Assembly (NCBI GenBank): GCA_964484935.1
Contig: CAZAFW010000001.1
Span: 135,654-199,653, forward strand
Direction of reading: 5' to 3'
DNA length: 64,000 nt
From: an uncultured Peptostreptococcaceae bacterium
GTDB lineage: Bacteria; Bacillota; Clostridia; Peptostreptococcales; BM714
Made by a program: the position numbers and the translations under genes. This document shows positions 11,879 through 62,024 of the stretch, piece after piece (within the stretch, counting starts at the first letter, position 1; the number at the start of each line of letters is the position of its first letter). The notes beneath the pieces were generated by a model. It worked only from the letters and a program-made list of their open reading frames with translations, made no database searches and was not told the DNA's origin.

Positions 11879-11966
11879 GCCTTGCACACCTCCTCTAAAC
11901 AATCTCGCCGAACTCAGGCGGCAATCGCTCTTAATACCTGGTCCGCGCGGTTCTCCGTGCTCATGC

Positions 11967-24025: not shown

Positions 24026-25018
24026 TTACTTGAGTTTTATGGCATCCTTGGGGCATTTTTCAACACATGCTCCGCATCCGATGCATTTTTGGGCATCCAC
24101 CTTGTGGGGTTTCTTCACTTCTCCCTCGATGGCGTCAACCGGACAAACTTTTGTGCAAAGCGTACATCCAATGCATGCTTGCTCGTCAATCTCGGCCTTT
24201 TTCCTGTTCTCCAAGTTCCCCGCGATGGCTCCTGTCGGACACTTTTCAACGCAAATCATGCACTCCGTGCATTTCTCATAATCAATAACCGCCAAATTGT
24301 CGACTACATGTATGGCGTCGAAGGGGCAATTTTTTTCGCAAATCTTGCAAGCTATGCAACCCACATCGCAAGACGCTTTCACTGCCTTGCCTTTATCCTT
24401 GCTGTTGCATTCTACTATCACTTCATGTCCGTAAGGAACAAGCGCAATTACATTTTTAGGACATGCCTCAATGCAATTTCCACAGGCCGTGCATTTGTCG
24501 TCAATTACTTCGGCAATGCCTTTGTCATTTATAAAAATTGCGTCGAAAGGACATACATCAACGCAAGTGCCCAATCCGAGACATCCGAACGAGCAACTCT
24601 TGCTTCCGCCATTTACTATGTTTGCGGCTTTACAATCCTGTATACCTATATACTCATATTTTTCTCTTGCATTTTCGCATGTTCCGTTGCAAATGACATG
24701 AGCAATCATCTTTGTGCTGTCTTCAACAACCAGTCCCATGATTTCAGCAACTTTTTCAGCTGTTTCAGCTCCACCTACAGGGCATCCGTTGACTTTGGCT
24801 TCGCCTTTTGCCACGGCATTTGCAAATCCGTCGCATCCCGGGTATCCGCAACCTCCGCAGTTGGCGCCGGGAAGAACTTCTCTTACAGCGACTGCCTTTG
24901 GATCTATTTCAACTGCAAACTTCTGTGAGGCATAAGCCAAGCCGGCTCCAAAAATCAATCCCATTCCACCAAGGCTCAAGGTAGAATAAATCAAGCCGTT
25001 AATATTCATATTCATCAC
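24026..25018 (-). CDS. rnfB: Rnf complex subunit B (long polyferredoxin form)
   Basis: N-terminal TM segment, a C-x2-C-x4-C-x16-C motif (CGGCGYPGC…C), then about six CxxCxxCxxxCP ferredoxin motifs. Last gene of rnfCDGEAB. Confidence 0.93.
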   Translation of the reverse strand: MMNMNINGLIYSTLSLGGMGLIFGAGLAYASQKFAVEIDPKAVAVREVLPGANCGGCGYPGCDGFANAVAKGEAKVNGCPVGGAETAEKVAEIMGLVVEDSTKMIAHVICNGTCENAREKYEYIGIQDCKAANIVNGGSKSCSFGCLGLGTCVDVCPFDAIFINDKGIAEVIDDKCTACGNCIEACPKNVIALVPYGHEVIVECNSKDKGKAVKASCDVGCIACKICEKNCPFDAIHVVDNLAVIDYEKCTECMICVEKCPTGAIAGNLENRKKAEIDEQACIGCTLCTKVCPVDAIEGEVKKPHKVDAQKCIGCGACVEKCPKDAIKLK

Positions 25019-25027
25019 CCTTTCCTT

Positions 25028-25609
25028 TTAGACTAGTCCTGCAAAGCCCAGAAATGCCATGGACATAAGGCCTGCAGTAATCAGAGCGATCGGGAAACCT
25101 TTAAACGGTGCGGGTACATCCGAAATTGCAAGTCTTTCCCGAATTCCGGCAAATAAAATGATTGCCAAGGAAAAACCCACCGCCGCGCCAAAGGAATGAA
25201 AAATCGTCTGGACGAAATTCAGTTTATATTGTATGTTGAGTAGCGCCAAACCTAGAACGGCACAGTTTGTAGTTATAAGCGGAAGATACACTCCCAATGC
25301 CTGATACAATACCGGGCTAAGCTTCTGAAGGACTATTTCAACAAATTGCACAAGGGCCGCAATTACAAGTATGAATGCGACAGTCTGCAAATACTCTATA
25401 TGGAAAAAAACCAAAATATACTTTTGTACCAGGTATGTAATCATACCAGCCAATGTTATAACAAACGTAACGGCCATGCCCATCCCTGTAGCAGTTTCAA
25501 CCTGTTTTGAAACTCCGAGAAAAGGACAGATTCCCAAAAATCTCGACAGGACGAAGTTGTTTACGAGAATCGAACTGACCAGGATAACGAAGATACTAGC
25601 GTTTTCCAC
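25028..25609 (-). CDS. rnfA: Rnf complex subunit A
   Basis: 193-aa polytopic membrane protein of the RnfA/NqrE family (…[18 protein letters not shown]…). Confidence 0.92.
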
Positions 25610-25621
25610 TTCAATCCCCCC

Positions 25622-26218
25622 TTATGACAAACTTTTTTTTGATTTGACAACATTATAAAGAGCCAACAATATACCAAGTGCGATGAAGGCTCCTGGAGGA
25701 AGTATCATTATGAGAGCCGGCTTGTATGCGAACGGCAGCTGCCATCCGAACAAGCTTCCTGCTCCAATCAATTCTCTCACAGCTCCCAATACCGTCAATG
25801 CCAAGGTAAATCCGATTCCCATTCCCAAACCATCGAAAATGGAATCAATCACTGTATTCTTAGATGCAAAAGCCTCGGCTCTTGCAAGTATTATGCAGTT
25901 TACCACAATAAGCGGTATGAAAAGGCCCAAAGCCTTGAACAGCGTTGGCAGATACCCTTCCATCAACATTCCAACAATCGTAACGAAACTGGCAATTACG
26001 ACTATGAATGCCGGTATTCTGATTTTGCTGGGTATTATTTTCCTCATCATTGAAATAACTGCATTCGACGCAACCAGTACAGCAGTGGACGCCAACCCCA
26101 TTCCTACTCCGTTTATTGCCGATGTTGTAACCGCCAGAGTTGGACACATGCCTAACAATTGAACGAATATGGGGTTTTCATCCAATAATCCATTCTTGAA
26201 AATTTTCATTAGATTCAA
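25622..26218 (-). CDS. rnfE: Rnf complex subunit E
   Basis: 198 aa, RnfE/NqrD family (…NPIFVQLLGMCPTLAVT…). Confidence 0.92.
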   Translation of the reverse strand: MNLMKIFKNGLLDENPIFVQLLGMCPTLAVTTSAINGVGMGLASTAVLVASNAVISMMRKIIPSKIRIPAFIVVIASFVTIVGMLMEGYLPTLFKALGLFIPLIVVNCIILARAEAFASKNTVIDSIFDGLGMGIGFTLALTVLGAVRELIGAGSLFGWQLPFAYKPALIMILPPGAFIALGILLALYNVVKSKKSLS

Positions 26219-26238
26219 TATAATTCACCTCCGGATAA

Positions 26239-26814
26239 TTACAGGCCAGAAACGATCTTGTAGGCTTCAACAGCCATGTTGACGCCTTCCGTGACCGCTT
26301 TGGACGTTATGGTAGCTCCGGAAATTGCCTGTATTTCATTTCCGGCGGCTCCCGCTTTGACAACTGTCAATTCAGATTCGGTGCTCTTTCCCGCATATTG
26401 TCCGTAAAAGTCCGGCAAAGTCGCATTCGCTCCAAGACCGGGTGTTTCCTGATGGCTTCCTACTCTCATTCCAGTGATTTTGCCATCCAACGAAACCCCT
26501 GTAATAACCTCAACGCTTCCGCCGAATCCACCCGGCAACGACTTAATGGTGTAGCCGACTACACCATCTCCTGTAAGTCCTTCATAAATCTCGACAACCA
26601 GTTCATTTTCATCTTTAACCTTGTCTAGCATATCGGCTTCAATTATTTCAAAAGACTCAGCTTCAGGCAAAACTTCCTGCCTGGACAACTGGCTTGTCAA
26701 TTCTCTTTGCCCAACAATCTTATCGATGGTGAAATCATAAACAAGAGATAGCAATCCCGCCGCAACAGCACATATTAAAAGTAGAATCAATCCTAATTTG
26801 CTGATTTCTTTCAT
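26239..26814 (-). CDS. rnfG: Rnf complex subunit G (FMN-binding)
   Basis: N-terminal TM segment plus an FMN_bind domain with the flavinylation motif SGATITS. Confidence 0.9.
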   Translation of the reverse strand: MKEISKLGLILLLICAVAAGLLSLVYDFTIDKIVGQRELTSQLSRQEVLPEAESFEIIEADMLDKVKDENELVVEIYEGLTGDGVVGYTIKSLPGGFGGSVEVITGVSLDGKITGMRVGSHQETPGLGANATLPDFYGQYAGKSTESELTVVKAGAAGNEIQAISGATITSKAVTEGVNMAVEAYKIVSGL

Positions 26815-27752
26815 TATTTTTTCACACCTCCGAACACATTGGCTTTGACATATTTGTCAATCAAAGGCGTTACAATATTCATAAATAGAATGGAGAAAGA
26901 CACGCCTCCTGGATATCCCCCAAACAGTCTGATTATTACTGTGATTAAACCGCATCCAACAGCATATATGATTTGCCCCTTTGCCGTCATCGGAGATGAT
27001 ACATAATCCGTAGCCATGAAGATGGCTCCCAAAACTAATCCTCCCGCTAGCAAATGGAACATCATGTAGTTTATATTGAATCCACCGTAAAACAATGTCA
27101 AAACAGCCACAGTACCCATGTATGCAAGAGGAATCCTCAGGCTTATAACTCCACGATAGACAAGATAAATTCCTCCTATCAAAAGTGCCAACGCCGAAAC
27201 TTCACCTATGCATCCTCCTATTTTACCAATGAAAAGATTAAAAATGGAAACACTTTCAGGCACAATCCTGCTTCCTTTTATAAGCGCAAGAGGAGTCGCC
27301 TCGGTTACTGCATCGACCGGGTACTTCCATGTGGTCATTTCAATCGGCCAAGATGCTATAAGGAATACTCTTGCCGCCAAAGCCGGGTTGATGAAATTAT
27401 GTCCCAAGCCCCCAAATGCCTGCTTGGCAATTGCTATTGCGAAAATCGAACCGACGATAGGAATCCAAAACGGAACTTCCGGAGGAAGGTTAAGTGCCAG
27501 CAAGAGTCCTGTTACGGCGGCGCTGTAATCCATTACTGTAATGGGTTGTCTTCTTATATTTTGTATTATTGCTTCAGTCGCCATGGCTGCCGCAACTGAC
27601 AGCAATACGACAATCAATGTCTGAAATCCGAAGTAATACATTCCTGCAAGCGTAGCAGGAATGAGAGCTATTACAACATCTCTCATTGTTTTATCAGTCG
27701 CTTCTTTCGACCTGATGTGCGGCGATGAAGTGACTATCAATTTTCTTTCCAT
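26814..27752 (-). CDS. rnfD: Rnf complex subunit D
   Basis: 312-aa polytopic protein of the RnfD/NqrB family (…SSPHIRS…, …FMATDYVSSP…). Confidence 0.92.
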   Translation of the reverse strand: MERKLIVTSSPHIRSKEATDKTMRDVVIALIPATLAGMYYFGFQTLIVVLLSVAAAMATEAIIQNIRRQPITVMDYSAAVTGLLLALNLPPEVPFWIPIVGSIFAIAIAKQAFGGLGHNFINPALAARVFLIASWPIEMTTWKYPVDAVTEATPLALIKGSRIVPESVSIFNLFIGKIGGCIGEVSALALLIGGIYLVYRGVISLRIPLAYMGTVAVLTLFYGGFNINYMMFHLLAGGLVLGAIFMATDYVSSPMTAKGQIIYAVGCGLITVIIRLFGGYPGGVSFSILFMNIVTPLIDKYVKANVFGGVKK

Positions 27753-27765
27753 CTTTACCCTCCTG

Positions 27766-29088
27766 TTATTTTGTTTTCCTTCGTTTTGAAAGTATTTCCC
27801 TTTTGGCCATTCTTATTGAATGGAGCAAAGGCCGTTTCGAAGGACAAATGAAAGAACACGAACCGCATTCGATGCAATCCATTGCATTATTCTTTTCCGC
27901 CATATCGAACATTCCGTTCAATGAATAGGCGCTGATTGCAAACGGTTGAATAAATGAAGGGCATATGTCTACACATTTGCCGCATCTTATGCAAGGATTT
28001 GGCTCAGGCAATCTTGCCTGTTCTTCCGTGAATACCAATACACCCGATGTAGTCTTGGTCGAGGGCAGGTCATCTGTGAATTGAGCAAAACCCATCATCG
28101 GTCCGCCAAGAATGAGTTTTCCCGGCTCGCCTTTGTATCCTCCAGCTTGAGCTATGATTTCACTGATTCTGGTTCCATTTTTTATCATAATGTTTTTAGG
28201 CTCGACAATTCCGTCGCCTGTGACAGTACAAATTCTTTCTATAAGCGGCATTCCTGTTCTGATTGCCTTCGATATCGCCGACATTGTGGCAACATTGCTT
28301 ACGACTGCTCCTGCATCCATCGGAAGGGCTCCTGAAGGAACTTCTCTTTGTGAACATGCGTAAATCAATTGTTTCTCAGATCCTTGCGGGTACTTGGTCT
28401 TTACGACCACAACTTGAATACCCGGTAAATCCTTTGCAGCCTCTTTCATCGAAAGCACAGCATCCATTTTGTTGTTCTCTATGGCTATGAAGGCTTTCTC
28501 AAGTCCCAAGACTTTCATTACTGCCCTTAACCCATAAACAACGTCTTCCGGAGTCTCAAGCATGAGACGGTGGTCCGATGTCAGATACGGCTCGCATTCC
28601 GCTCCGTTTAATATAAGTACATCAATCTTCTTGTCCGGTGGAGGCGACAATTTTACTCTTGTCGGGAAGCCCGCCCCGCCCATTCCTACTATTCCGGCTT
28701 CGTTGATTATATCGAGTATTTCTTTCGGCTCAAGCATCTCGATATCGCCCTTGGGAACAACGCTCTCATGAACTTCATTCAAGCCATCGGACTCGATTAC
28801 GATGCAAGTTCCCGTACCGTTGATAATCATCCTTTTTTCGATTTTCTTTACCGTTCCGGAAATGCTGCTATGGACTGGCGCAGATACAAATCCGCCCGCT
28901 TCACCAATTTTCTGCCCAACCTTGACTTTTTCGCCAACTTCCACAATTGCCTTGCAAGGTGCGCCGATGTGTTGCTGAAGGGGAATTACTACGATTTCAG
29001 GTTCCAAAGCTTTCTCCACCGGTAAATGTTCTGTCATTTCTTTACTGTGTGGAGGATGAATGCCTCCCCTGAATGATAAAAGATTCAT
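27766..29088 (-). CDS. rnfC: Rnf complex subunit C
   Basis: MNLLSFRGGIHPP…, a GMGGAGFPT nucleotide-binding motif, and two C-terminal 4Fe-4S motifs (CIRCGKCVDICP, CIECGSCSFICP). Confidence 0.95.
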   Translation of the reverse strand: MNLLSFRGGIHPPHSKEMTEHLPVEKALEPEIVVIPLQQHIGAPCKAIVEVGEKVKVGQKIGEAGGFVSAPVHSSISGTVKKIEKRMIINGTGTCIVIESDGLNEVHESVVPKGDIEMLEPKEILDIINEAGIVGMGGAGFPTRVKLSPPPDKKIDVLILNGAECEPYLTSDHRLMLETPEDVVYGLRAVMKVLGLEKAFIAIENNKMDAVLSMKEAAKDLPGIQVVVVKTKYPQGSEKQLIYACSQREVPSGALPMDAGAVVSNVATMSAISKAIRTGMPLIERICTVTGDGIVEPKNIMIKNGTRISEIIAQAGGYKGEPGKLILGGPMMGFAQFTDDLPSTKTTSGVLVFTEEQARLPEPNPCIRCGKCVDICPSFIQPFAISAYSLNGMFDMAEKNNAMDCIECGSCSFICPSKRPLLHSIRMAKREILSKRRKTK

Positions 29089-29210
29089 TGATACTCACCC
29101 CTTTATAAATATTCGTCACATTTATACTCATTATATTGCCAAACAAATTACAATATAAATAATATCATGCGAACAAAAAAACACAAAAAAAAAACATATA
29201 GTCCATTAAC

Positions 29211-29239
29211 ATAGTATCTTTAAAGGTTTTTAAAGTCAA
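29211..29239 (-). promoter_or_regulatory. candidate sigma-A promoter for rnfCDGEAB
   Basis: Minus strand: TTGACT (29239..29234), 17-nt spacer, TACTAT (29216..29211). This would give a T-rich 5'UTR of about 120 nt before rnfC. Confidence 0.45.
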
Positions 29240-29243
29240 TCAT

Positions 29244-29261
29244 TGTTAATTGCATAACGAA
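29244..29261. promoter_or_regulatory. candidate Rex (NADH/NAD-sensing repressor) operator
   Basis: TTGTTAA-TTGC-ATAACGA versus the clostridial Rex consensus TTGTTAA-N4-TTAACAA. The left half is 7/7 and the right half 5/7. It ends 4 nt from the -35 of the candidate rnf promoter. Confidence 0.35.
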
Positions 29262-29282
29262 TATTCGGAGCGCTTTTGAAAA

Positions 29283-29825
29283 TCATTGTTTGATTTTTTC
29301 AAGACCTTCTTTAACATGCTCCTTTATCCAGCAAATTACATCGATATTGTTCAACGGCACATCGCCCAAAACTTCTTTGATTTCCCTTGTATCCAATATA
29401 AAACATCTTTCATCTATATAATGTCTGTATATGAAATCAACTTTGATGTCCGATATCACAACTGTAACAACGGTATCTACAATATTGCCGAGAGGAGCAC
29501 GGTCAATATGGTCATATCTGAATGAAGCTGTCAGCTCCGTTCCCTTTCCTACTTCCGATTTCATCTTGAAACTCCCATCGCAATTTTCTGCGGCAGATTT
29601 TAACATTGGTATGCCCAATCCAACTTTTCTTGTTGTCCTGCTTGTGTAGAACGGATTGGTCACTTTTTTAAGCGTTTCCTCATCCATTCCCTTTCCATCG
29701 TCTTTGATGCATATTTCAAGAATGTTCTTTTCTATTTTTTCACAAATCTCAATTTCAACCAGTTTGGAATCAGCATGGACAGAATTTTGAGCTATGTCCA
29801 ATATATGCATAGACAATTCCTTCAT
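29283..29825 (-). CDS. stand-alone HATPase_c (GHKL) ATP-binding protein, no HisKA or receiver domain
   Basis: N-box-like HILDIAQNS, G1 DDGKGM, G2 GLGIPM. A C-terminal domain of about 70 aa has no recognisable motif. Last gene of the six-gene cluster. Confidence 0.75.
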   Translation of the reverse strand: MKELSMHILDIAQNSVHADSKLVEIEICEKIEKNILEICIKDDGKGMDEETLKKVTNPFYTSRTTRKVGLGIPMLKSAAENCDGSFKMKSEVGKGTELTASFRYDHIDRAPLGNIVDTVVTVVISDIKVDFIYRHYIDERCFILDTREIKEVLGDVPLNNIDVICWIKEHVKEGLEKIKQ

Positions 29826-29839
29826 TTTAAGTCCCCCTT

Positions 29840-30553
29840 TCAGCTTTTTCTCAATGATTTGAATATGCTTCGAATATCTTTTTCATCAACTTCCAACCAA
29901 TTGTCACGCTCTGAAATGTCATGAAGATAATGGGCATCCGAATTTGAGACGAAGCAAAAATTCTTATACATAGGGTTCTTTGCTGTGAATTTTTCATGCG
30001 TCGTTATTTTTGAAAGCTCCAAGGCATCCACATTCAAGTCGGGCGGCAAGAAACCCAGATTTGCAATTAGACTAAACGCCTTTCTGTCTATGTGGGCCGG
30101 TATTGCAAGCCCATCATGCTCATGCACCAATTCAACCAATGCATAGATATTTAAACCAACCGAATGTATCAGCAGGCGTTTTTCTTCGCCTTTCAATTCG
30201 TCATTTTCATCGAATATCAATTGCCTTCCCAACAATTCCTCGGGATTGGAAATCCATTCAAAATGCTTGAAGAGTTCGTCTTGAAACGAATTGATCTTTT
30301 CAATTGTTTCGAACAGGCAAAGCACATGCACTTCCTCTTTTGTCTGAACTTCCATTCCCGGTACAACTATTATTCCATTCTTTCGGCCCAACTCCATGCA
30401 AGCCTCACAGTTTGCCGCATTGTTGTGGTCTGTTACCGCTATCGCGTCAAGCCCTTTTAATAAAGACATGTTTATTATATTGTTTGGAGTCATATCCTCA
30501 TCGCCGCACGGTGAAAGCGCCGAATGGATATGGAAGTCGTAATAAAGCTTCAT
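29840..30553 (-). CDS. PHP-domain metal-dependent phosphoesterase
   Basis: MKLYYDFHIHSALSPCGD… (HxH), …AVTDHNN…, …IPAHIDR…, …SNSDAH… are typical PHP metal ligands. Start placed at ATG 30553, forming an ATGA overlap with the preceding stop. ATG 30580 is the alternative. Confidence 0.8.
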   Translation of the reverse strand: MKLYYDFHIHSALSPCGDEDMTPNNIINMSLLKGLDAIAVTDHNNAANCEACMELGRKNGIIVVPGMEVQTKEEVHVLCLFETIEKINSFQDELFKHFEWISNPEELLGRQLIFDENDELKGEEKRLLIHSVGLNIYALVELVHEHDGLAIPAHIDRKAFSLIANLGFLPPDLNVDALELSKITTHEKFTAKNPMYKNFCFVSNSDAHYLHDISERDNWLEVDEKDIRSIFKSLRKS

Positions 30554-30885
30554 TTCATTCCCATCTCGTTTAGTTTGCATGCCAATGTAAAACTGTCAAG
30601 TTCGGAAGTGCATACAATTATATTCTCTTCATCCGCTTTCGCCAAAGTCTCTTCCTCCACTTCAATGGATTCAGGCACTATTACCATAGGCATTTCAAGA
30701 AGTGAGGCAACAGCTATTATGTTGAGGTGTGTCTGAACGGTAATCCAAATATCTCCTTTGCTTCCGTTTGCCATGACCCAACTCAAAAGATCGCAAATAT
30801 AAACTCCGTCCACGATTTTCATTGAATCCTTTTCGCCACTTAGCTGGTTCAATTTCAGTTCATCGATAATTTCATTGATGATCAT
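30550..30885 (-). CDS. DRTGG domain protein
   Basis: 111 aa; …VYICDLLSWVMANGSKGDIWITVQTHLNIIAVASLLEMPMVIV… fits the DRTGG fold pattern and is paralogous in layout to 32596..32955. It overlaps the upstream gene by 14 nt. Confidence 0.7.
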   Translation of the reverse strand: MIINEIIDELKLNQLSGEKDSMKIVDGVYICDLLSWVMANGSKGDIWITVQTHLNIIAVASLLEMPMVIVPESIEVEEETLAKADEENIIVCTSELDSFTLACKLNEMGMK

Positions 30886-32149
30886 TATTAACCTCCTGTC
30901 CTTTTCTTATTATGCAATCGTCAATTGAAGCTTCTCCCCGTACAATATCTTCCGCCAAAGCTCTGCAGCTTGGAGCTCCGCATGTTCCACAGTCTATTCC
31001 CGGCAGTTGCTTGTATATCTTCTCTATCATGTCCATCTTATTTATTGCCACACGAATGTCCGAATCCAATTTCATCACATTTTTAGGCTTAATTTCATCA
31101 ACCCAATCTTTCATTTCTTCATTGATTTTCCCTATGGCTTTTTCCCTGTCAATTGCCTCGAATTGTTTCTCCCCGATTTCTTCGGAAATGCGTCTTATTC
31201 TAGCTTTTGCGATAAATGAATTCTCCATTGTGAGTGGACCTCCAATACATCCATTTACGCATGCATATCCCTCGAAAAAATCCACATCGTTGAGCTTTCC
31301 AAGTTCCATTCCTTCCAATACTTCAATTACATTTTCTATGCCGTCAACAGCAAGATAATTTTTGGCTTTTATGCTGAAACTCTGTCCGTTTGCTTTTGCC
31401 CACCCTATTCCGACACTTGACGAGTTCTGCACTTGTTTTCGTATCTCCACATCCGGATAAATCTTCAAGATCTTGGAATAAACCGATTCTATTGAAATAG
31501 CTCTATCGACATACGACTTTCTTATTCCGACCGGGTTCTTAATGCTTGTTATCTTAGCTGGACATTCCGTTATATAAAATGTCCCAATTTCATCCATAGG
31601 TATTCCGGTTTTTTCCACAGCTTCCTTCTTGGCAAATCTAGCAGCAATTTCCATCGGTGTCTCAAGCTTGATTATCCTGTCTATAAGAGAAGGAAACCTT
31701 ATTTGTATCAGTCTTATTATTGCAGGGCAAAGAGTCGAAATAAGCGGACCTTCTTTTTCTCTGTTTTCCAATCTGTCTTTCAACGCTATTGAAAGATAGT
31801 CAGCGGCCTTGGCAACATCATAAACTTCATCGAAACCCAAATCGTAAAAAGAATTGAATATCTTGTTTATTTTCTTGCTCAAGTGAAATTGTCCATAAAT
31901 CGGAATAGAAACCAGCGCTATATTGTATTTGTATTTCTTCATGTCGGACAATTCATCCGTCAATGCTCTTTTCGCGTGATATGGGCATACTCTTATGCAC
32001 TCTCCGCAATCTATGCAGCGTTCATTTATGATTTCAGCTTTTCCATTGCGTAGGCGTATAGCCTCGGTCGGACATCTTTTCAAGCAATTAGTGCATCCAT
32101 TGCACTTTGTTATATCCAAATTGACTGAATGCCAATAATTTTCCATCAA
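30872..32149 (-). CDS. [FeFe]-hydrogenase-like protein: 2x[4Fe-4S] ferredoxin N-terminus, Fe-hydrogenase large-subunit-like core, RnfB-type C-x2-C-x4-C-x16-C C-terminus
   Basis: CNGCTNCLKRCP and CIDCGECIRVCP. Core motifs are STLCPA (compare TSCCP), ECPAK (compare MPCxxK) and ACVNGCIGGP (compare ExMxCxxGCxxGG). C-terminal CGTCGAPSCRALAEDIVRGEASIDDC. Confidence 0.75.
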   Translation of the reverse strand: MMENYWHSVNLDITKCNGCTNCLKRCPTEAIRLRNGKAEIINERCIDCGECIRVCPYHAKRALTDELSDMKKYKYNIALVSIPIYGQFHLSKKINKIFNSFYDLGFDEVYDVAKAADYLSIALKDRLENREKEGPLISTLCPAIIRLIQIRFPSLIDRIIKLETPMEIAARFAKKEAVEKTGIPMDEIGTFYITECPAKITSIKNPVGIRKSYVDRAISIESVYSKILKIYPDVEIRKQVQNSSSVGIGWAKANGQSFSIKAKNYLAVDGIENVIEVLEGMELGKLNDVDFFEGYACVNGCIGGPLTMENSFIAKARIRRISEEIGEKQFEAIDREKAIGKINEEMKDWVDEIKPKNVMKLDSDIRVAINKMDMIEKIYKQLPGIDCGTCGAPSCRALAEDIVRGEASIDDCIIRKGQEVNNDHQ

Positions 32150-32159
32150 ATTCCCTCCA

Positions 32160-32591
32160 TCAAATATTAAAAATCATTTCCACTTTTGTTTCCGCTCCCT
32201 TGGAAGATTCAATACTGAATTGGTCACTTGTTCTTTTCATATTAGGCAATCCCATGCCTGCCCCAAAGCCCATTTCACGCGCTTCATTCGAGGCTGTTGA
32301 AAATCCTTTTGTCATAGCTTTTTCAATATTTTCGATTCCATTTCCCTTGTCATGTGCTGTTACAGTTATTTTGTCGTGCGAAATTTCTGTGGTGATTTTG
32401 CCTCCTTCAGAATGAATAACTATGTTTATTTCCGACTCGTAAGCAGCTATTGCCACCCTTCTTACAACCTTTGCGTCGATGCCGATTTGATTCAACACTT
32501 TCTTGATGTTGCTTGATGCAAGTCCCGCCTTTGAAAACTCTTCTTTGCCGACTTCGTATTCAAGCTTTATTGTTTTTTCCAATTCAGCCAT
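32160..32591 (-). CDS. RsbW/SpoIIAB-like serine kinase-type HATPase_c protein (anti-sigma-factor-like)
   Basis: 143 aa; N-box AAYESEINIVIHS, G1 DKGNGI, G2 GFGAGMGLPN. Size and motif order match anti-sigma-factor kinases. No STAS partner or sigma factor gene is nearby. Confidence 0.7.
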   Translation of the reverse strand: MAELEKTIKLEYEVGKEEFSKAGLASSNIKKVLNQIGIDAKVVRRVAIAAYESEINIVIHSEGGKITTEISHDKITVTAHDKGNGIENIEKAMTKGFSTASNEAREMGFGAGMGLPNMKRTSDQFSIESSKGAETKVEMIFNI

Positions 32592-32595
32592 ATTA

Positions 32596-32955
32596 TTATG
32601 CCCCTTCTATTTTGATTGCTCCAAGTCCGCTCTTATAGAGCATACCGCTTGCTTCGAACAAAGTATGTTTAACTCCCATTAAAACCATTTTCTTTTCTCG
32701 TGCCAACCTGCAAACCTCTTCGTTGGGCTTTTTCCCCCTTACGAATACAATATTGGACAAATCTAGCATTTCTGCAGTCCTTATTACTTGCAGATTGGTG
32801 AGTCCAGTCAAAAGAAGTACCTTGTCATCAACAAAAGCCAATACATCGCTCATCAAATCACATGAAAAAGCTGCTTCCACTTCCCTGTCCATGTATTCTT
32901 CTCCTGCCAATATTTCGGCATCGAGTATTTCTTTTGCTTCTCTAAGTAACATCAC
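32596..32955 (-). CDS. DRTGG domain protein
   Basis: 119 aa; …AFSCDLMSDVLAFVDDKVLLLTGLTNLQVIRTAEMLDLSNIVFVRGKKP… fits the DRTGG pattern. It overlaps the upstream gene's stop. Confidence 0.72.
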   Translation of the reverse strand: MMLLREAKEILDAEILAGEEYMDREVEAAFSCDLMSDVLAFVDDKVLLLTGLTNLQVIRTAEMLDLSNIVFVRGKKPNEEVCRLAREKKMVLMGVKHTLFEASGMLYKSGLGAIKIEGA

Positions 32956-33854
32956 AATCCCCCTTCAACACCTTCGATTCCTTCGATATAAAGTTCCGAC
33001 AAATCGTCCATGAATCCTTCATTTTCAGTTTCGGCAACTTTAAGCAAAACTTCCTCAACCGATTCATGCCAATCATCAATTCCTTCAAAAATAAATCCAG
33101 CTGAATCGAGATCATCAAGCCTCAGCCTCATACTTTCCAACTCGTCCAACTTATTGTTTGCTGTTTCTTTAAAATCTCCAAGTTTCAAATTTGAATTCAA
33201 ATATGCTACATAATCGGATTGAACCTCTCCAATCATCGAAATCATACTCTCATAATCCTTTACACATGCGAGTGCATCTTCTTCATTGTCCTCCTCATAT
33301 GAAAATTCAACTGTTTTTTCGATCCTGTATAAAAAGGCATCGTCTGCAATATCCCTTGCGGCATTTTTGAAATACTCATCAAGGGCGCTGTCTGCATAGA
33401 CAATATTCAAAACCTTGAAATTGTTCCCGTCTACAATTATTCCTGCCTCACCCTTATCGTCCAATTCACCCAAAAACTTTTCTGCATTTTCCCGCTTTGA
33501 AAATCCTCCAAGCTGATAAGCATAGAGATTCAAATCAATTTGTCCGGTCTTCATGCCAGGCTTTATATTTTCATTTTCAATGCCGGTTTCCACCTGATCT
33601 TCAATTTTTTCTTCCCTAGTTTCATCTTCTTGAATTTCGTCAGGCTTTATTTCCAACATATCCGATATTTCCCTGCTTTGCTCTTCATCGGATCCCGAAG
33701 CTTCAGCCGATATGGGTTTTTCATTTCCTGAAAGCATGAATTTCACTCCGTAAAAACCCACCAATGCCGAAATTACGCATAAAAACAAAATTGAAAGAAT
33801 TATTCTTCCGCTTCTGTTTTTTCTGCTTCTTTTTCTTTTATATCTCTGTGCCAT
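32952..33854 (-). CDS. membrane-anchored protein with acidic linker and SPOR-like domain
   Basis: N-terminal basic stretch plus a TM segment (RIILSILFLCVISALVGFYGV), then an E/D-rich linker. …YAYQLGGFSKRENAEKFLGELDDKGEAGIIVDGNNFKVL… resembles a SPOR repeat. The C-terminal 140 aa are unassigned. Confidence 0.5.
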   Translation of the reverse strand: MAQRYKRKRSRKNRSGRIILSILFLCVISALVGFYGVKFMLSGNEKPISAEASGSDEEQSREISDMLEIKPDEIQEDETREEKIEDQVETGIENENIKPGMKTGQIDLNLYAYQLGGFSKRENAEKFLGELDDKGEAGIIVDGNNFKVLNIVYADSALDEYFKNAARDIADDAFLYRIEKTVEFSYEEDNEEDALACVKDYESMISMIGEVQSDYVAYLNSNLKLGDFKETANNKLDELESMRLRLDDLDSAGFIFEGIDDWHESVEEVLLKVAETENEGFMDDLSELYIEGIEGVEGGL

Positions 33855-44952: not shown

Positions 44953-46335
44953 CTATATGAGTTTTCTTTGTTCTATACCCTTTTCATTCAACGCCGCCTT
45001 TACGTATATTGCGCATTCGACACGCTTTTTTTCCATTTCGCAGCCCAATTCATAGGGCTCGAAGATATTTCCGTTTGAATAGTAGGCATTTGCATGGCAG
45101 CCCCCGCCGCAATAGAATCTTGCCCAGCAGTTCCTGCATGCCTCCTTTTTATAGACATGTGCATTCTTGAAATCCAGCGGTTTCTTCAAATCTTCATAAG
45201 AATCATCAAGCGTACCCATTTCCATCGACTTTTCCCCTACGAACTGATGACATGGATAAAGTTCTCCTTCGGGTGTTACTGCAAGATACTCTATTCCCGC
45301 ACCGCATCCGGAAAGACGCTTGTATGCGCACGGTCCCTGGTTTAAATCCACTTCAAAGTGATAGTAGTTTATCGGTTCGCCTTCCTCATGGCGCTTTATT
45401 ATTTCATCGGCCAATGCTTCATATTGTTCGAAAATTACCGGAAGATGCTCTTCCTTGAGCACATACGGCTCGGTGGGTTTTGTCACAACCGGCTCAAGAG
45501 ACAGGCTGTCGAAGCCGCTGTCGGCAAGAAAACGGACATCCTCCGAAAAATTCAAATTGTAAGATGTGAACGTTCCCCTAGCAAAATACAAGCGATTTTC
45601 ACGCATTTTCACGAATTTCTTTAATTTATCGTAGATGTCGTCAAAAGACCCCTTCCCGCTTGCATAATATCTCAACCTGTCATGATTCTCTTTCTTTCCG
45701 TCTATGCTCAGGACCACATTGTCCATGTTCTTGTCTAAAAATTCCATTACCTCGTCTGTCATTAGAACACCGTTTGTAGTCAGTGTAAAACGAAAGTGCT
45801 TCCCGGTCTCTTTTTCCCTTTTTCTTCCGTAATGGACAAGTTCTTTTACGACATCAAAATTCATCAAGGGCTCGCCTCCAAAAAAATCGACTTCCAGATT
45901 CCTTCTGTTTCCCGAATTTTCTATAAGATAGTCCAAAGCCTTTATACCTGTTTCCAGGGACATGAGGCTTCTCTTTCCGTTGAAGTCCCCCTGGGCGGCA
46001 AAACAATACTCGCATCTGAGATTACAGTCGTGGGCGACATGAAGACACATAGCTTTAACTACCGGTTTTGCGGCAAGCAGCGGATTTTCACCCAATATGT
46101 CGTCTGCAAAAAGTTCTTTTCCTTCTATAAGGGTATCAATTTCAACCCTTGCCTCTTCAACCGTTTTCTTGCCATGTAATTCCATGCACTTGCTGAAAGC
46201 CTCATTTTCTTTGTCCAGTCCATTTTCCGAATATGAATCAAGAAGATCAAATGCCGCATCATCCACAACATGAACCGCTCCACTGTTTATATCTAAAACA
46301 ATGTTAATTCCATTTTGTCTATACTTGTGAATCAT
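44953..46335 (-). CDS. scfB: radical SAM/SPASM thioether-forming maturase of the SCIFF peptide
   Basis: CNLRCEYC radical SAM motif, plus a C-terminal SPASM Cys cluster (…CAYKRLSGCGAG…YPCHQF…CRNCWARFYCGGGCHANAY). It lies immediately downstream of the SCIFF precursor. Start set at ATG 46335 behind GGGAGGAAAG. Confidence 0.9.
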   Translation of the reverse strand: MIHKYRQNGINIVLDINSGAVHVVDDAAFDLLDSYSENGLDKENEAFSKCMELHGKKTVEEARVEIDTLIEGKELFADDILGENPLLAAKPVVKAMCLHVAHDCNLRCEYCFAAQGDFNGKRSLMSLETGIKALDYLIENSGNRRNLEVDFFGGEPLMNFDVVKELVHYGRKREKETGKHFRFTLTTNGVLMTDEVMEFLDKNMDNVVLSIDGKKENHDRLRYYASGKGSFDDIYDKLKKFVKMRENRLYFARGTFTSYNLNFSEDVRFLADSGFDSLSLEPVVTKPTEPYVLKEEHLPVIFEQYEALADEIIKRHEEGEPINYYHFEVDLNQGPCAYKRLSGCGAGIEYLAVTPEGELYPCHQFVGEKSMEMGTLDDSYEDLKKPLDFKNAHVYKKEACRNCWARFYCGGGCHANAYYSNGNIFEPYELGCEMEKKRVECAIYVKAALNEKGIEQRKLI

Positions 46336-46365
46336 AGTCTTTCCTCCCACTAAATACGCAAAGAG

Positions 46366-46392
46366 AAAAAGCAGCTTTCAAGCTGCTTTTTT
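46366..46392 (-). terminator. hairpin with U-tract between SCIFF precursor and maturase (candidate attenuating terminator)
   Basis: Minus strand: AAAAAAGCAGCT-TGAA-AGCTGCTTTTTCTCTTT. A 6-bp GC-rich stem extended by A:U pairs, starting 3 nt after the scfA stop. Confidence 0.6.
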
Positions 46393-46394
46393 GA

Positions 46395-46535
46395 TTACTT
46401 TGTGTTTTCACAAACTTGGTTTCCAACAGTGCATGAGGTTTTGCATGCCGACTGGCAAGATGTTTGACATTCTCCGCAGCCTTTGTTTTTAATTTCCTTC
46501 AATTTGCCCCTGCTGAGGGTTTTTACATGCTTCAT
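46395..46535 (-). CDS. scfA: six-cysteine ranthipeptide precursor SCIFF (46 aa); absent from the ORF track
   Basis: Own translation of the minus strand: MKHVKTLSRGKLKEIKNKGCGECQTSCQSACKTSCTVGNQVCENTK*. ATG at 46535 is preceded by AAAGGA. The N-terminus and the six-Cys spacing match the SCIFF family as I remember it (MKHIKTL…GGCGECQTSCQSACKTSC). Confidence 0.9.
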   Translation of the reverse strand: MKHVKTLSRGKLKEIKNKGCGECQTSCQSACKTSCTVGNQVCENTK

Positions 46536-46588
46536 CCGTTCATCCGTCCTTTCACAAACAATCCATTTTCAATGCCTTGATATTTTGA

Positions 46589-46858
46589 TTATTCCTCGAC
46601 TGTTCCTATGGCCCATTTGCTTAGCTGGAGCTTGAGCTTGTCCGCTCCGATTTCCAATGTAAGCACTTCATCGTTGATTTTTACAATTGTTCCATTGATT
46701 CCTCCAATGGTCACAACTTTGTCGCCGACTTTCAGGTTTTCACGCATTTTCTGAATTGCCTTGTTCTTCTTTTGTTGCGGTCTTATCATAAGAAAATACA
46801 ATATTCCAATGAACAACAACGGAAACAAAAGCTGAATAGCAGATGAATTATTCATCAA
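46589..46858 (-). CDS. yajC: preprotein translocase subunit YajC
   Basis: 89 aa; a single TM segment, then …MIRPQQKKNKAIQKMRENLKVGDKVVTIGGI.G… is the YajC signature. Confidence 0.92.
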   Translation of the reverse strand: MMNNSSAIQLLFPLLFIGILYFLMIRPQQKKNKAIQKMRENLKVGDKVVTIGGINGTIVKINDEVLTLEIGADKLKLQLSKWAIGTVEE

Positions 46859-46888
46859 TACTTCCCCCTTAATTTTTTTACATGTTTT

Positions 46889-58268: not shown

Positions 58269-58382
58269 ATTCTATGTTTGTTACAATTCTTTCATTATTG
58301 CCAAACGCCTTTCTTCTTATGTTATAATATTATAGCATTTGATTGCAATAATATTCACAGAAACAACCTTCGGAGGTATGAA

Positions 58383-61574: not shown

Positions 61575-61582
61575 GCGAATAT

Positions 61583-61621
61583 AAAAGAAAGATGCCGACA
61601 AATTGTCGGCATCTTTCTTTT
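61583..61621. terminator. bidirectional rho-independent terminator
   Basis: AAAAGAAAGATGCCGACAA-TT-TTGTCGGCATCTTTCTTTT is a long perfect palindrome between convergent genes. Confidence 0.85.
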
Positions 61622-61653
61622 ATATTCTACTGGTCGTCTATAGCATTCGTTTT

Positions 61654-62010
61654 CTATCTGCGCCTTCGTTCAGGCTTTGTCATTCCCGTTATCGCCATGT
61701 TAAGAAAAGTAAGCATTATCGATGCCAACACAGCTGTCGCAAAGCTGTCTATAACGAATCCTCCCACGAAAAAATCCACAGCTTTCAGCATGAAACCATT
61801 CAGTATAAATGTGAATATGCCAAGTGTCATTATGTTTATGGGAAGCGTCAAAACAATCAAAACAGGCCTTATCAGCATGTTCAGTACGCTAAGCAGCAAT
61901 GCGGCGGACATGGCAGTGGCAAAGCCCTTTACTGCAACCCCTTCAAACAACCACGCTATGACATATATGGAAATGGAGTTGACGATCCATCTGTTCAAGA
62001 ATTTCGCCAA
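61654..62010 (-). CDS. DUF360 / 'phage holin family 4'-type membrane protein (YvlD-like)
   Basis: 118 aa, four hydrophobic segments, …WIVNSISIYVIAWL…LLLSVLNMLIRPVLIVLTLPINIMTLGIFTFILNG… is a typical DUF360 pattern. No phage genes are nearby. Confidence 0.75.
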   Translation of the reverse strand: MAKFLNRWIVNSISIYVIAWLFEGVAVKGFATAMSAALLLSVLNMLIRPVLIVLTLPINIMTLGIFTFILNGFMLKAVDFFVGGFVIDSFATAVLASIMLTFLNMAITGMTKPERRRR

Positions 62011-62024
62011 TTCAAAAACCCCTT

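Follow-up and report, generated by a model that had tools for sequence, protein, structure and literature searches.

Six genes were re-located on the minus strand of the window, the 64-kb stretch of DNA from an uncultured Peptostreptococcaceae bacterium analysed here, at the coordinates and with the tight packing of the original prediction. In gene order, they were DRTGG1 (D1, 32596-32955), coding for a stand-alone DRTGG protein of 118-119 aa with an ATG start at 32952; K1 (32160-32591), for a 143-aa GHKL ATPase or Ser kinase similar to SpoIIAB/RsbW; the HydS-like gene (30872-32149), for a group D (M2e) [FeFe]-hydrogenase homologue of 424-425 aa (gene callers choose the ATG at 32146, which gives 424 aa); DRTGG2 (D2, 30550-30885), for a second stand-alone DRTGG protein of 111 aa; PHP (29840-30553), for a metal-dependent phosphoesterase of the PHP family (237 aa); and K2 (29283-29825), for a stand-alone GHKL ATPase of 180 aa. 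The spacings in this order were 4, 10, -14, -4 and 14 nt, the two negative values being the overlaps of DRTGG2 with HydS and with PHP, respectively. As predicted, the module ended 194 nt before the start of rnfC. The operon that follows, rnfCDGEAB (24026-29088, minus strand), encodes the ferredoxin:NAD+ oxidoreductase and is possibly regulated; it consists of rnfC (27766-29088), rnfD (26814-27752), rnfG (26239-26814), rnfE (25622-26218), rnfA (25028-25609) and rnfB (24026-25018). RnfC matched TIGR01945 of NCBIfam at 7.7e-166, and the six rnf products fell into Pfam families on identical metagenome contigs. The Pfam scan of the larger ORFs of the 64-kb window found no gene for NuoE/NuoF/HydA or hydEFG, and none for a sigma factor, STAS, HisKA or receiver domain, in agreement with the claim that there are no local genes for catalytic partners or maturases and no domain that binds DNA or is of a classical signalling type.

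The module proteins were assigned to families by Pfam and NCBIfam profile searches, which agreed with the domains originally proposed. The HydS-like protein contained a Fer4 dicluster, Fe_hyd_lg_C (1.4e-27) and the PF04060 FeS domain (5.8e-15). In the alignment of related loci, the N-terminal cysteines (C16/19/22/26 and C45/48/51/55), the H-cluster residues (C141/C196/C297/C301, plus K199) and the C-terminal Cx2Cx4Cx16C motif (C387/390/395/412) were invariant. The charged residues conserved in group D were present (R32, R34, K37, R44, K60, D386, E400, D401 and D411), L140 occupied the position of CpI C299, and T194 that of M353. By the criteria of PMC8163306, the protein bears every sequence hallmark of a group D (M2e) [FeFe] hydrogenase, because it has the complete set of cysteine motifs, lacks a PAS domain and carries other residues in place of C299 and M353 (Thr in the latter case). 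TamHydS, a biochemically studied representative of this group, was proposed to be a putative H2 sensor (PMC8163306, PMC13104023). The description of the module as uncharacterised was therefore too broad, as its core protein has the group D motifs and a studied relative. For the signalling partners of group D HydS, PMC13104023 says outright that they have yet to be identified.

The window HydS belonged to a monophyletic "Gln-type" subclade (18 loci, versus about 61 Glu-type loci) in which the residue equivalent to TamHydS E252 is Gln and that equivalent to S249 is Ala or Val; the window counterparts are Q256 and A253. Together with the bulky side chain that replaces CpI C299, these changes are predicted to disrupt the group D proton relay in this subclade. 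In TamHydS, the glutamate E252 is indispensable for H2 oxidation: less than 0.01% of this activity is left in the variants E252V and E252D, which do not respond to H2 (PMC10407848). By analogy with these variants, the window HydS may fail to respond to H2 altogether.

DRTGG1 matched PF07085 at 27 bits. The best fold matches of its AF2 model (pLDDT 91) were AF1212 (2ioj, TM 0.80), the DRTGG domain of a CBS-pyrophosphatase and the HPrK/P N-domain, and no STAS match was obtained in this search. The motifs DLMSD, LLTGL, RTAEM and RGK.P were invariant. DRTGG2 scored 23.4 bits against PF07085, just below the 25.2-bit cut-off, with a weak Hpr_kinase_N match; its family profile matched the 3l2b DRTGG domain and 2ioj, and these profile and fold matches confirm the domain identity. 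Its invariant residues were DLLS, T49, N55 and VA. K1 matched HATPase_c_2 of Pfam at 1.2e-09 and, below the family cut-off, the SpoIIAB model TIGR01925 of NCBIfam at 1e-13, and its family profile aligned over the full length with SpoIIAB structures (3e-11) and RsbW (9e-06). The N-box (E..N...H), DxGxG and GFGAGMGLPN were invariant. The PHP protein (PF02811) had an entirely invariant metal site (D.H.H, TDH, E, H, PAH, SDAH), as well as the invariant motifs LSPC and MTP. Its family profile matched Endonuclease Q (5.5e-10), 3e0f, RNase AM, 2yb1 and the PolC PHP domain; the solved structures nearest to it belong to nucleases or nucleotide phosphoesterases and not to protein phosphatases, so a kinase/phosphatase pair working on one protein is unsupported. 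K2 matched HATPase_c (8e-14) and HATPase_c_3 (3e-10) of Pfam, with conserved N, G1, F and G2 boxes. Its AF2 model (pLDDT 92) showed a Bergerat fold followed by a small C-terminal alpha/beta domain. The best whole-chain matches were the MutL N-terminal domain (TMq 0.58), GRP94 and Topo VI-B, and histidine-kinase CA domains matched over only about 105 columns, so that the fold of the whole chain resembles the MutL/Hsp90 class no less than kinases. Since K1 and K2 have invariant ATP-binding motifs and PHP an invariant metal site, the three proteins are predicted to be catalytically competent.

The comparison set comprised 80 related genomes or loci, and counts were made over evaluable loci only. 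The order DRTGG1-K1-HydS-DRTGG2-PHP was kept, with all four partners present, in 65 of the 72 evaluable loci. This recurrence places the arrangement far beyond chance and bears out the expected conservation of the gene set. Individual partners were found beside HydS in 74/77 (K1), 74/75 (D1), 72/78 (D2) and 71/77 (PHP) evaluable loci. The five genes overlapped or were less than about 40 nt apart, and a gap of 107-580 nt then preceded the NuoE operon. The usual home of K2 was this next operon, NuoE-K2-Fdx-NuoF-HydA, which encodes the bifurcating hydrogenase, with K2 lying between NuoE and Fdx (20 loci); it was divergent from the module in five loci and directly followed PHP in nine, the latter being the arrangement of the Gln-type subclade. 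Where K2 followed PHP, the nearby hyd operon was devoid of it (L002, L016, L088, L089, L091). This observation and the variable position of K2 assign it to the signalling system and not to the enzyme. The six-gene unit thus exists in the window, whereas the conserved unit is five genes plus one, because K2 normally lies within the hydABC operon. These genes form the conserved set of helpers that accompanies a putative H2-sensing [FeFe] hydrogenase of group D, and the module is not wholly uncharacterised.

The predicted linkage to energy-conservation genes was recovered in a modified form, the usual context being upstream of hydABC. The rnfCDGEAB operon came next after the module in 9 of the 18 Gln-type loci, from several genera, and in none of the about 61 Glu-type loci. 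Caminicella sporogenes, Thermohalobacter berrensis and a contig similar to Brassicibacter are among these loci; by locus number, the adjacency was seen in L001, L087, L090, L092 and L093. The HydS proteins of the rnf-linked loci were 46-63% identical to that of the window, with the exception of L001 (95%). Two layouts existed in the Gln-type loci, K2-rnf and NuoE-K2-Fdx-NuoF-rnf. In the Thermoanaerobacterales (L010, L014), the SPOR gene and the five-gene core were followed by NuoE-K2-Fdx-NuoF-HydA, a small ORF and maf-radC-mreB-mreC; in the window, the SPOR gene and the six genes were followed by rnfCDGEAB, DUF4321 and maf-radC-mreB-mreC. The rnf operon therefore fills the chromosomal slot held by hydABC in the Thermoanaerobacterales.

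The K2-rnfC intergenic region (29089-29282, minus strand) contained a T-rich tract, a Rex-like box, TCGTTATGCAATTAACAA, at 29243-29260, with two mismatches to the consensus TTGTTAANNNNTTAACAA (PMC8457756, PMC4600107), and a promoter-like site, TTGACT-17-TACTAT, at 29211-29239. From this site, rnf appears to have its own promoter in the window. Rex boxes with at most two mismatches were present upstream of the NuoE operon in 7/29 loci and of the module in 7/39, compared to about 0.3 in shuffled sequence; Rex binds the five-gene hyd operon of C. thermocellum (PMC8457756). On the other side of the module, the stop codon of orf300 (32952-33854, minus strand), a membrane protein gene with a weak Pfam SPOR match (E = 0.0014), overlapped the DRTGG1 start. 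In about 13 other loci, the gene immediately before DRTGG1 was a homologue of orf300 (E = 7e-13), and a SPOR gene held the same position in L087, L090, L092 and L093. This gene may accompany the module as a conserved partner or just belong to the conserved backbone. The SPOR gene upstream and DUF4321-maf-radC-mreB downstream were equally conserved neighbours with no evident redox role. From the module back to relA, the largest gap was 29 nt and no minus-strand terminator-like site was found between the genes, as had been claimed; the relA-dtd-MBL-hemZ linkage proved to be lineage-specific and is not conserved in relatives, whereas the linkage to Rnf is.

We propose, with moderate confidence, that the module is a signalling device for redox state or H2 that depends on ATP and is coupled to the machinery of ferredoxin oxidation, and we infer the whole chain from domain content and gene order. 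A signalling device with H2 or the ferredoxin redox state as its possible input had been suggested in the original prediction, and we judge this reading right. In this model, HydS, whose H-cluster site lies between a pair of N-terminal [4Fe-4S] clusters and a C-terminal [4Fe-4S] domain, is the redox/H2 input. It would be co-produced with, and probably bind, the small DRTGG adaptors D1 and D2, K1 and PHP, while K2 would move together with the energy-conserving genes under regulation. H2 and/or reduced ferredoxin would set the reduction state of HydS and thereby alter its conformation, which would gate the ATP-dependent binding or phosphorylation by K1 in a HydS-D1-K1 assembly. D2 and PHP would reset the signal, K2 would relay it post-translationally to NuoF-type NAD(H)/ferredoxin complexes, and Rex would separately handle transcription of the target operons. 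The target in most Clostridia would be the bifurcating HydABC hydrogenase. In the Gln-type subclade, with K2 moved to the module end, the device most likely reports reducing pressure to ferredoxin re-oxidation by Rnf, since the proton relay appears disrupted, K2 has moved and rnf occupies the hydABC slot.

The conserved rnf adjacency may be backbone synteny. The HydS set would then serve HydABC or another target encoded elsewhere, its place next to rnf being an inherited arrangement without functional coupling to Rnf, an explanation that we consider rather unlikely. It is consistent with the conservation of the SPOR-like gene and DUF4321-maf-radC-mreBCD flanks, which are unrelated to redox metabolism, with other Gln-type genomes that keep hydCDBA a few kilobases upstream without rnf nearby, and with the relatives that have a terminator-like hairpin between K2 (or NuoF) and rnfC and separate promoters before rnfC, to which the promoter-like site in the 194-nt gap of the window can be added. 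The restriction of rnf adjacency to Gln-type loci, in two layouts, argues against it, as does the flank beyond the SPOR gene, which differs in every genus while module and rnf stay together, and the retention of K2 beside rnfC after the loss of NuoE, Fdx, NuoF and HydA.

The output could also be transcriptional, K1 sequestering a sigma factor encoded elsewhere, with the DRTGG proteins as antagonists and PHP as phosphatase. The full-length SpoIIAB and RsbW matches of K1 point to this, and the combination of one kinase-like protein with a hydrolase and a pair of small proteins echoes the RsbW/RsbV/RsbU logic. However, neither a sigma factor nor a STAS gene adjoined the module in the 80 loci, K1 scored far under the SpoIIAB and RsbW family cut-offs, D1 has the DRTGG/HPrK N-domain fold and not that of STAS, and the solved kin of PHP act on nucleic acids or nucleotides, not on phosphoproteins. 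We find such a circuit improbable, and a partner-switching device of the classical type is not supported. Alternatively, HydS would be a low-rate hydrogenase exchanging electrons with ferredoxin and feeding or draining Rnf, the other proteins being assembly or maintenance factors (a GHL-type ATPase, a phosphoesterase). TamHydS does interconvert H+/H2 at low rates (PMC8163306), the ferredoxin-like clusters, H-cluster ligands and K199 of HydS are invariant, and the whole-chain fold of K2 is like MutL/Hsp90-class ATPases. Against this very improbable role stand the window HydS itself, in which two of the four positions of the proton relay hold Gln and Ala, the near-complete loss of H2 oxidation in the TamHydS E252V/E252D variants, the lack of any linked maturase or small subunit and the conservation of two regulatory-type GHKL proteins with HydS. 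H2-driven ferredoxin reduction is, moreover, thermodynamically unfavourable without bifurcation.

The proposed signalling device can be compared with several known systems. Mitochondrial PDK/BCKDK, GHKL-fold Ser kinases which with their phosphatases form a post-translational on/off switch of a redox enzyme complex, show that a GHKL protein can act on a dehydrogenase complex. BCKDK was among the K2 fold matches, but the analogy is functional only, as these kinases are eukaryotic and have a four-helix N-terminal domain that K2 does not. In SpoIIAB-SpoIIAA-SpoIIE and RsbW-RsbV-RsbU, as in the module, a small GHKL protein with intact ATP motifs (here K1) lies beside small single-domain proteins and a metal-dependent hydrolase; the module has no STAS protein, PP2C phosphatase or sigma factor, and its small proteins have the DRTGG fold. 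In HoxBC-HoxJ-HoxA of Ralstonia eutropha, as summarised in PMC5707799, a low-activity hydrogenase feeds a kinase chain controlling energy-converting hydrogenases. The likeness lies in a hydrogenase of low activity as the proposed input of kinase signalling; the [NiFe] sensor, PAS/DHp histidine kinase and DNA-binding response regulator have no counterpart in the module. The group C (M2f) HydS/HfsB proteins (Thermotoga maritima HydS, Ruminococcus albus HydS, Thermoanaerobacterium hfsABCD) are also hydrogenase-derived sensors that have the same C-terminal [4Fe-4S] cluster as an extra. Their genes lie with those for a Ser/Thr kinase and a phosphatase, in linkage to fermentative hydrogenases, and the proteins were proposed to report the H2 partial pressure (PMC5707799, PMC11837493, PMC13104023). 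They have a fused PAS domain and a serine phosphatase, whereas the window module has no PAS, two DRTGG proteins, PHP and two GHKL proteins.

TamHydS of Thermoanaerobacter mathranii, the group D representative, has the same two [4Fe-4S] clusters, H-domain and C-terminal Cx2Cx4Cx16C cluster without PAS, the loss of C299, a hydroxyl residue for M353, the charged residues around the clusters and a flanking GHKL ATPase gene. As early as 2012, group D genes were seen to lie close to those for kinases and bifurcating HydABC (PMC3561251), and the module supplies concrete candidates for the signalling partners of group D HydS that hydrogenase researchers say they are still missing. The Thermoanaerobacterales HydS (L010, L014) were about 52% identical to that of the window and had the same four partner genes. 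The window HydS differs from TamHydS by Gln for E252 and Ala for S249 (residues 1 and 3 of the proton pathway) and by Glu for P354, and from most of group D by Leu instead of Ala at the CpI C299 position. New here is this Gln-type variant, with an altered proton relay, in a module followed by rnf and not by hydABC.

The six open reading frames of the module were found on the minus strand exactly where the original prediction had placed them, and the profile searches returned the predicted domain for each product. In the order of transcription these were D1 (32596–32955), with a DRTGG profile match; K1 (32160–32591), a SpoIIAB-like HATPase_c_2 protein of 143 aa; the HydS-like gene (30872–32149), encoding a ferredoxin-like dicluster, an Fe_hyd_lg_C domain and a PF04060 FeS domain; D2 (30550–30885), whose DRTGG match fell just under the Pfam cut-off; PHP (29840–30553), encoding a PHP domain; and K2 (29283–29825), encoding a second, stand-alone HATPase_c protein of 180 aa. 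The successive spacings from D1 to K2 were 4, 10, −14, −4 and 14 nt, the rnfC start lay 194 nt beyond K2, and upstream of the module no gap exceeded 29 nt all the way to relA. The rnf operon was complete (C, D, G, E, A, B), with Pfam families assigned to the six products and a TIGR01945 match of 7.7e-166 for RnfC. The backbone of the window consisted of housekeeping genes (ruvABC, queA, tgt, secDF, recJ, apt, relA, dtd and hemZ, then maf, radC, mreBCD, a PBP gene, rodA, RNase E/G, obg and leuS). The Pfam scan of the larger ORFs in the rest of the 64-kb window revealed no gene for a hydrogenase subunit, a maturase (hydEFG included), a sigma factor, a STAS protein or a receiver. A near-identical locus was present on several metagenome contigs, where K2 was 100% identical, and HydS was 95% identical in a Peptostreptococcaceae MAG. 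The length of HydS was 424–425 aa depending on the gene caller, the callers beginning one codon after the start of the 425-aa ORF; the shorter versions on some metagenome contigs were due to the caller's choice of start and not to gene disruption.

Some other features of the window were observed. A radical SAM/SPASM gene was located at 44953–46350, and the segment upstream of it (46351–46888, approximately 540 nt) contained no ORF of 150 aa or more. The only long plus-strand genes of this otherwise minus-strand window were at 58278–61574, encoding a class A PBP of 1098 aa in which a long insertion separates the transglycosylase from the transpeptidase domain, and at 61603–62274, a 223-aa ORF without Pfam match. 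The GC and AT skew switched sign at these plus-strand genes (58278–62274).

The HydS sequence displayed the features of a particular class of hydrogenases. Eight N-terminal cysteines (C16, C19, C22, C26, C45, C48, C51 and C55), the set for two [4Fe-4S] clusters, were invariant among 13 aligned sequences, and the region gave Fer4 dicluster Pfam matches. The Fe_hyd_lg_C domain was matched at 1.4e-27 and the H-domain also aligned to solved hydrogenases. The H-cluster cysteines C141, C196, C297 and C301 were kept in all 73 HydS proteins compared, and the CN-binding lysine K199 in 67 of them. Position 194, which corresponds to M353 in the reference hydrogenase CpI, was Thr in 42 proteins, the window HydS among them, and Ser in the 31 others, while the C299 position of CpI was occupied by L140 in the window. 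The C-terminus contained C387, C390, C395 and C412 in the arrangement Cx2Cx4Cx16C (PF04060, 5.8e-15), all four unchanged in the relatives aligned, and no Pfam match to a PAS domain was obtained. This C-terminal motif without a PAS domain is one of the hallmarks of group D (PMC8163306). The charged residues conserved around the group D clusters (R30, R32, K35, R42, K58, D378, E392, D393 and D403 in TamHydS numbering) were also present. On these motifs HydS very probably belongs to the group D (M2e) [FeFe] hydrogenases. In the sole characterised member, TamHydS from Thermoanaerobacter mathranii, a functional H-cluster is bound; its turnover is low, its affinity for H2 is high, and it is seen as a putative H2 sensor (PMC8163306). 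The C-terminal cluster is stated not to be reduced by H2 (PMC13104023). The module had been described as uncharacterised. This no longer applies to HydS, which falls in a recognised and partly characterised class, so that the system is not categorically new; it does apply to the partner genes. The DRTGG literature searched mentioned hydrogenases only in unrelated contexts, and searches linking PHP, kinase or anti-sigma genes with hydrogenases turned up no work on these partners. It is reasonably probable that the module has a sensory or regulatory role.

The catalytic motifs of K1, K2 and PHP were intact. The K1 family profile matched SpoIIAB structures (3e-11) and RsbW (9e-06) over the full length, and the N-box, DxGxG and GFGAGMGLPN motifs were invariant; the K1 protein itself scored short of the SpoIIAB/RsbW family cut-offs. 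In all probability short of proof, K1 works as an ATPase or Ser kinase. K2 had the complete set of ATP-binding boxes of the histidine-kinase type, and its AF2 model (pLDDT 92) combined a Bergerat fold with a small alpha/beta domain. For the whole K2 chain the best fold match was the MutL N-terminal fragment, at a TMq of only 0.58 and an rmsd of about 5 Å, followed by GRP94 and Topo VI-B; these belong to the GHL ATPases, in which a transducer-like second domain follows the Bergerat fold. Catalytic domains of histidine kinases, and BCKDK, fitted at most the first ~105 residues, and there the kinase CA domain fitted better than MutL. The D1 model (pLDDT 91) matched AF1212 (TM 0.80), the CBS-pyrophosphatase DRTGG domain and the HPr kinase N-domain, and D1 and D2 shared an invariant D-L-(M/L)-S motif. 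In the CBS-pyrophosphatase the DRTGG domains contact each other in the DRTGG-DRTGG' dimer, and only the enzymes with DRTGG respond to diadenosine polyphosphates; by analogy, D1 and D2 may be dimerising adaptors or ligand-binding modules. The metal site of PHP was complete. Among solved structures it was closest to Endonuclease Q, RNase AM, nucleoside-bisphosphate phosphatases and the PolC PHP domain, and it could act on a nucleotide or a nucleic acid instead of a phosphoprotein.

Several known types of device were considered for this set of proteins. The original prediction had named a partner-switching or phospho-signalling device. A SpoIIAB-type GHKL protein is indeed present, but the window and the 80 related loci contained no STAS protein, PHP takes the place of the PP2C phosphatase, and a sigma factor was absent within 10 kb in every locus looked at; a classical partner-switching module is not supported. 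The DRTGG proteins could not be read as STAS analogues, the fold search with D1 giving no STAS match. A two-component histidine kinase does not fit: domain searches, and the model in the case of K2, showed K1 and K2 to consist of the catalytic ATP-binding domain only, without a HisKA/DHp domain bearing a phospho-acceptor His, and no receiver partner was found nearby. The reading of PHP as a protein-tyrosine-phosphatase of the CpsB/YwqE type found no support in sequence or profile searches. Anti-phage defence of the Ppl or PDC-M49 type was also discarded, the PHP-domain matches to defence-system protein models being weak (24 bits at most); the other module genes gave nothing against these models save a marginal 17.5-bit match between the HydS ferredoxin region and BrxP. 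Fusion proteins were looked for among the best 120 homologues of HydS, K2 and D1, and only proteins of a single architecture were observed.

The conservation of the gene set, a check named in the original prediction, was evaluated by a genome scan with one genome per species. At least 562 relatives were detected, and the best 80 loci were analysed by tblastn and ORF clustering. In these best 80 loci K1 was present in 74 of 77 evaluable cases, D1 in 74/75, D2 in 72/78 and PHP in 71/77, and the order D1-K1-HydS-D2-PHP with all four partners was kept in 65 of the 72 loci where it could be evaluated. Module loci were distributed among Peptostreptococcales, Oscillospirales, Christensenellales, Thermoanaerobacterales, Coprothermobacterota and two deltaproteobacterial MAGs. 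Genes of the five-gene core overlapped or were separated by less than about 40 nt, which suggests that they are co-translated and perhaps form a complex. The few loci without D2-PHP (L007, L012, L015, L020, L041 and L060 among the related loci) kept D1-K1-HydS or only D1-HydS. In two of them (L007, 8493–14022; L041, 9065–12096) a CheW-like gene preceded (D1-)K1-HydS and a carbon-nitrogen hydrolase gene followed; L007 had in addition a PAS-GGDEF protein downstream. These variants suggest that the sensor core can also be wired to other outputs (chemotaxis or c-di-GMP). A SPOR-domain membrane protein gene of approximately 300 aa was observed directly upstream of D1 (gap of 17 nt or less, or overlap) in many loci of several orders, for instance in L087 (8233–9162), L090 (7215–8135), L092 (7262–8164), L093 (7261–8157), L010 (8425–9198), L014 (7364–8164) and the window (32952–33854), where its stop codon overlaps the D1 start. 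This gene is perhaps a seventh one associated with the module, or simply belongs to the conserved backbone.

The position of K2 was variable. K2 followed NuoE in 26 loci, with the NuoE operon 59–580 nt behind PHP, and the full string NuoE-K2-Fdx(2Fe-2S)-NuoF-HydA was found in 20 loci. In five loci the NuoE-K2 operon was divergent from the module and K2 had moved along with the operon. K2 was located directly behind PHP in nine loci including the window, and where PHP and K2 were adjacent a nearby hydrogenase operon was devoid of K2 (L002, L016, L088, L089 and L091). Since K2 is missing from the nearby hydrogenase operon where it lies behind PHP, it is a single-copy member of the system and not a hydrogenase subunit. 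The predicted six-gene module is better described as five genes plus one, K2 usually being elsewhere.

The active site of the window HydS differed from that of TamHydS. The proton pathway of TamHydS runs through E252-E289-S249-D265, and below 0.01% of H2 oxidation remains in the variants E252V and E252D, which hardly react to H2 (PMC10407848); E252 has been termed highly conserved in group D (ACS Catalysis paper). These positions, mapped by motif spacing, published residue numbers and mutagenic primer sequences, are occupied by Q256, E293, A253 and D269 in the window HydS, which does not keep the complete pathway. Among the 73 module HydS proteins, position 256 was Glu in 61, Gln in 11 and Ala in one. 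The 11 Gln proteins formed one clade in a neighbour-joining tree, and Gln was found in all of the best 120 database proteins closest to the window HydS. The Gln-type and Glu-type proteins, named after this residue, differed in a handful of columns, and the radical changes were all at the active site: E to Q at 256, S to V/A at 253 and A to Y/L/F at the CpI C299 position. The Gln-type was otherwise unchanged, H-cluster ligands included. Gln-type members were the window (30872–32149; L140, E195, A253, Q256) and the related loci L001–L004, L016, L025, L050, L052, L059, L070 and L087–L093. Judging by this pattern of substitutions, the proton relay seems to have been lost in a concerted way. A Gln-type HydS may bind H2 without turning it over, or may sense the redox state through its FeS clusters. 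No mention of such a subclade was found in the literature examined.

The linkage of the module to rnf and to relA, both proposed as worth examining, gave opposite outcomes. The genes relA, dtd, MBL and hemZ were upstream of the module only in the window's own lineage and other genera differ there; the relA linkage is not conserved. For rnf, 18 Gln-type loci were available from the genome scan and seven further look-ups, and rnf was the next operon in nine. K2 was followed by rnfCDGEAB in six of them (the window, L001, Caminicella sporogenes CP126462, a JGI contig, a Brassicibacter-like contig and Thermohalobacter berrensis), and NuoE-K2-Fdx-NuoF, without HydA, was followed by rnfCDGEAB in three (L050, L052 and L070). 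This HydBC-type flavoprotein module was situated at 11880–15125 in L050, 8241–11551 in L052 and 12625–15883 in L070, and rnfCDGEAB began after 330–500 nt. Another four loci of the 18 had hydCDBA without K2 a few kilobases upstream, and in none was HydA directly downstream. Among the Glu-type loci examined none had rnf downstream, and two (L046 and L061) had it 3.8 kb upstream. The arrangement in Thermoanaerobacterales (SPOR, D-K1-H-D-P, NuoE-K2-Fdx-NuoF-HydA, a small ORF, maf-radC-mreB-mreC) was co-linear with that of the window (SPOR, D-K1-H-D-P-K2, rnfCDGEAB, DUF4321, maf-radC-mreB-mreC), and thus rnf sits in the slot of the hydrogenase structural genes. The main rival to a functional link is that rnf lies next to the module through inherited synteny of the backbone; the SPOR gene on one side and maf-radC-mreB on the other are neighbours of the module just as conserved. 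That Rnf is the direct target of the module is a tentative and somewhat doubtful proposal.

The neighbouring operon's transcription could be under separate control. Consensus scans for promoters and terminators between 23.5 and 39.5 kb gave site numbers no higher than in shuffled sequence, so that the operon boundaries cannot be set from the sequence. The whole window gave no hit in Rfam and tRNA scans, and no riboswitch or leader family was found in the 194-nt K2-rnfC gap. This gap contains a promoter-like TTGACT-17-TACTAT and, at 29243–29260 just upstream of the rnfC −35 element, a Rex-like box TCGTTATGCAATTAACAA with two mismatches to the clostridial Rex consensus TTGTTAANNNNTTAACAA. The box was kept in L001 with one substitution. 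Rex-like boxes with up to two mismatches were located before the NuoE operon in 7 of 29 loci and before the module in 7 of 39, compared to about 0.3 in shuffled sequence, and several boxes upstream of the hyd operon or the module in other loci were perfect. In C. thermocellum, Rex is known to bind the hydrogenase operon, which comprises five genes (PMC8457756). A hairpin resembling a terminator separated K2 or NuoF from rnfC in several relatives. These boxes, hairpins and the promoter-like site suggest that transcription of the neighbouring operon is seemingly controlled by Rex and separate promoters, which fits a module without DNA-binding domain and points to a post-translational output. A palindrome, TGTATACA, was also observed 60–230 nt upstream of rnfC in five relatives (L052 at 12362, L070 at 16166, and the K2-rnfC gaps of L087, L092 and L093), as a variant in L090, and in the PHP-NuoE gaps upstream of the hyd operons of L011, L024 and L028. 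It was absent from the window and not enriched overall, and could be the operator of some regulator.

We propose the following chain of events, in which the signalling steps are inferred. The conformation of HydS would shift with the redox or H2 state, and a HydS-D1-K1 assembly would spend ATP to bind or phosphorylate a partner. D2-PHP would reset the signal, and K2 would pass it to NAD(H)/ferredoxin complexes of the NuoF type, with HydB as target in most genomes and RnfC in the window. The scheme makes physiological sense: HydABC and Rnf are the two alternative sinks for reduced ferredoxin, and under rising H2 the flux should pass from HydABC to Rnf. A bolder version, which we hold to be unlikely, is that the Gln-type proteins are pseudo-hydrogenases that no longer split H2 and would read ferredoxin or cellular redox through their FeS clusters. 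Joined by D1 and D2 as adaptors, by the SpoIIAB-like K1 as kinase, by the PHP esterase and by the mobile K2, they would form an undescribed post-translational switch acting on NuoF-type subunits, re-targeted during evolution from HydB to RnfC.

These observations bear on the way in which H2 and reducing pressure are sensed by anaerobes that ferment or are acetogenic, and on how such organisms choose between sending ferredoxin electrons to H2 (HydABC) and to energy conservation (Rnf). One group D enzyme has been characterised in detail, and finding the interaction partners of HydS has been called the critical next step for understanding its signalling (PMC13104023). A list of candidates that recur in about 90% of loci is now available; it comprises the DRTGG proteins D1 and D2, the SpoIIAB-like kinase K1, the PHP esterase and, as mobile GHKL ATPase, K2. 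Together with a natural "proton-relay-dead" subclade tied to Rnf and with cultured organisms sharing the layout, such as Caminicella sporogenes, this list makes the question directly testable. Should the Rnf link prove functional, Rnf would be under a dedicated control of the post-translational or sensory kind, of which no case was found in the hydrogenase and module-gene literature at which the searches were aimed. The class of HydS was already known and partly characterised; the quantified partner set, K2 as a mobile component and the Gln-type, putatively proton-relay-deficient subclade recurrently coupled to Rnf are new. Compared to the usual context of group D, where a bifurcating group A HydABC operon is a frequent but not obligatory neighbour (downstream or divergent in at least 25 of 81 loci), the window HydS has rnfCDGEAB downstream instead.
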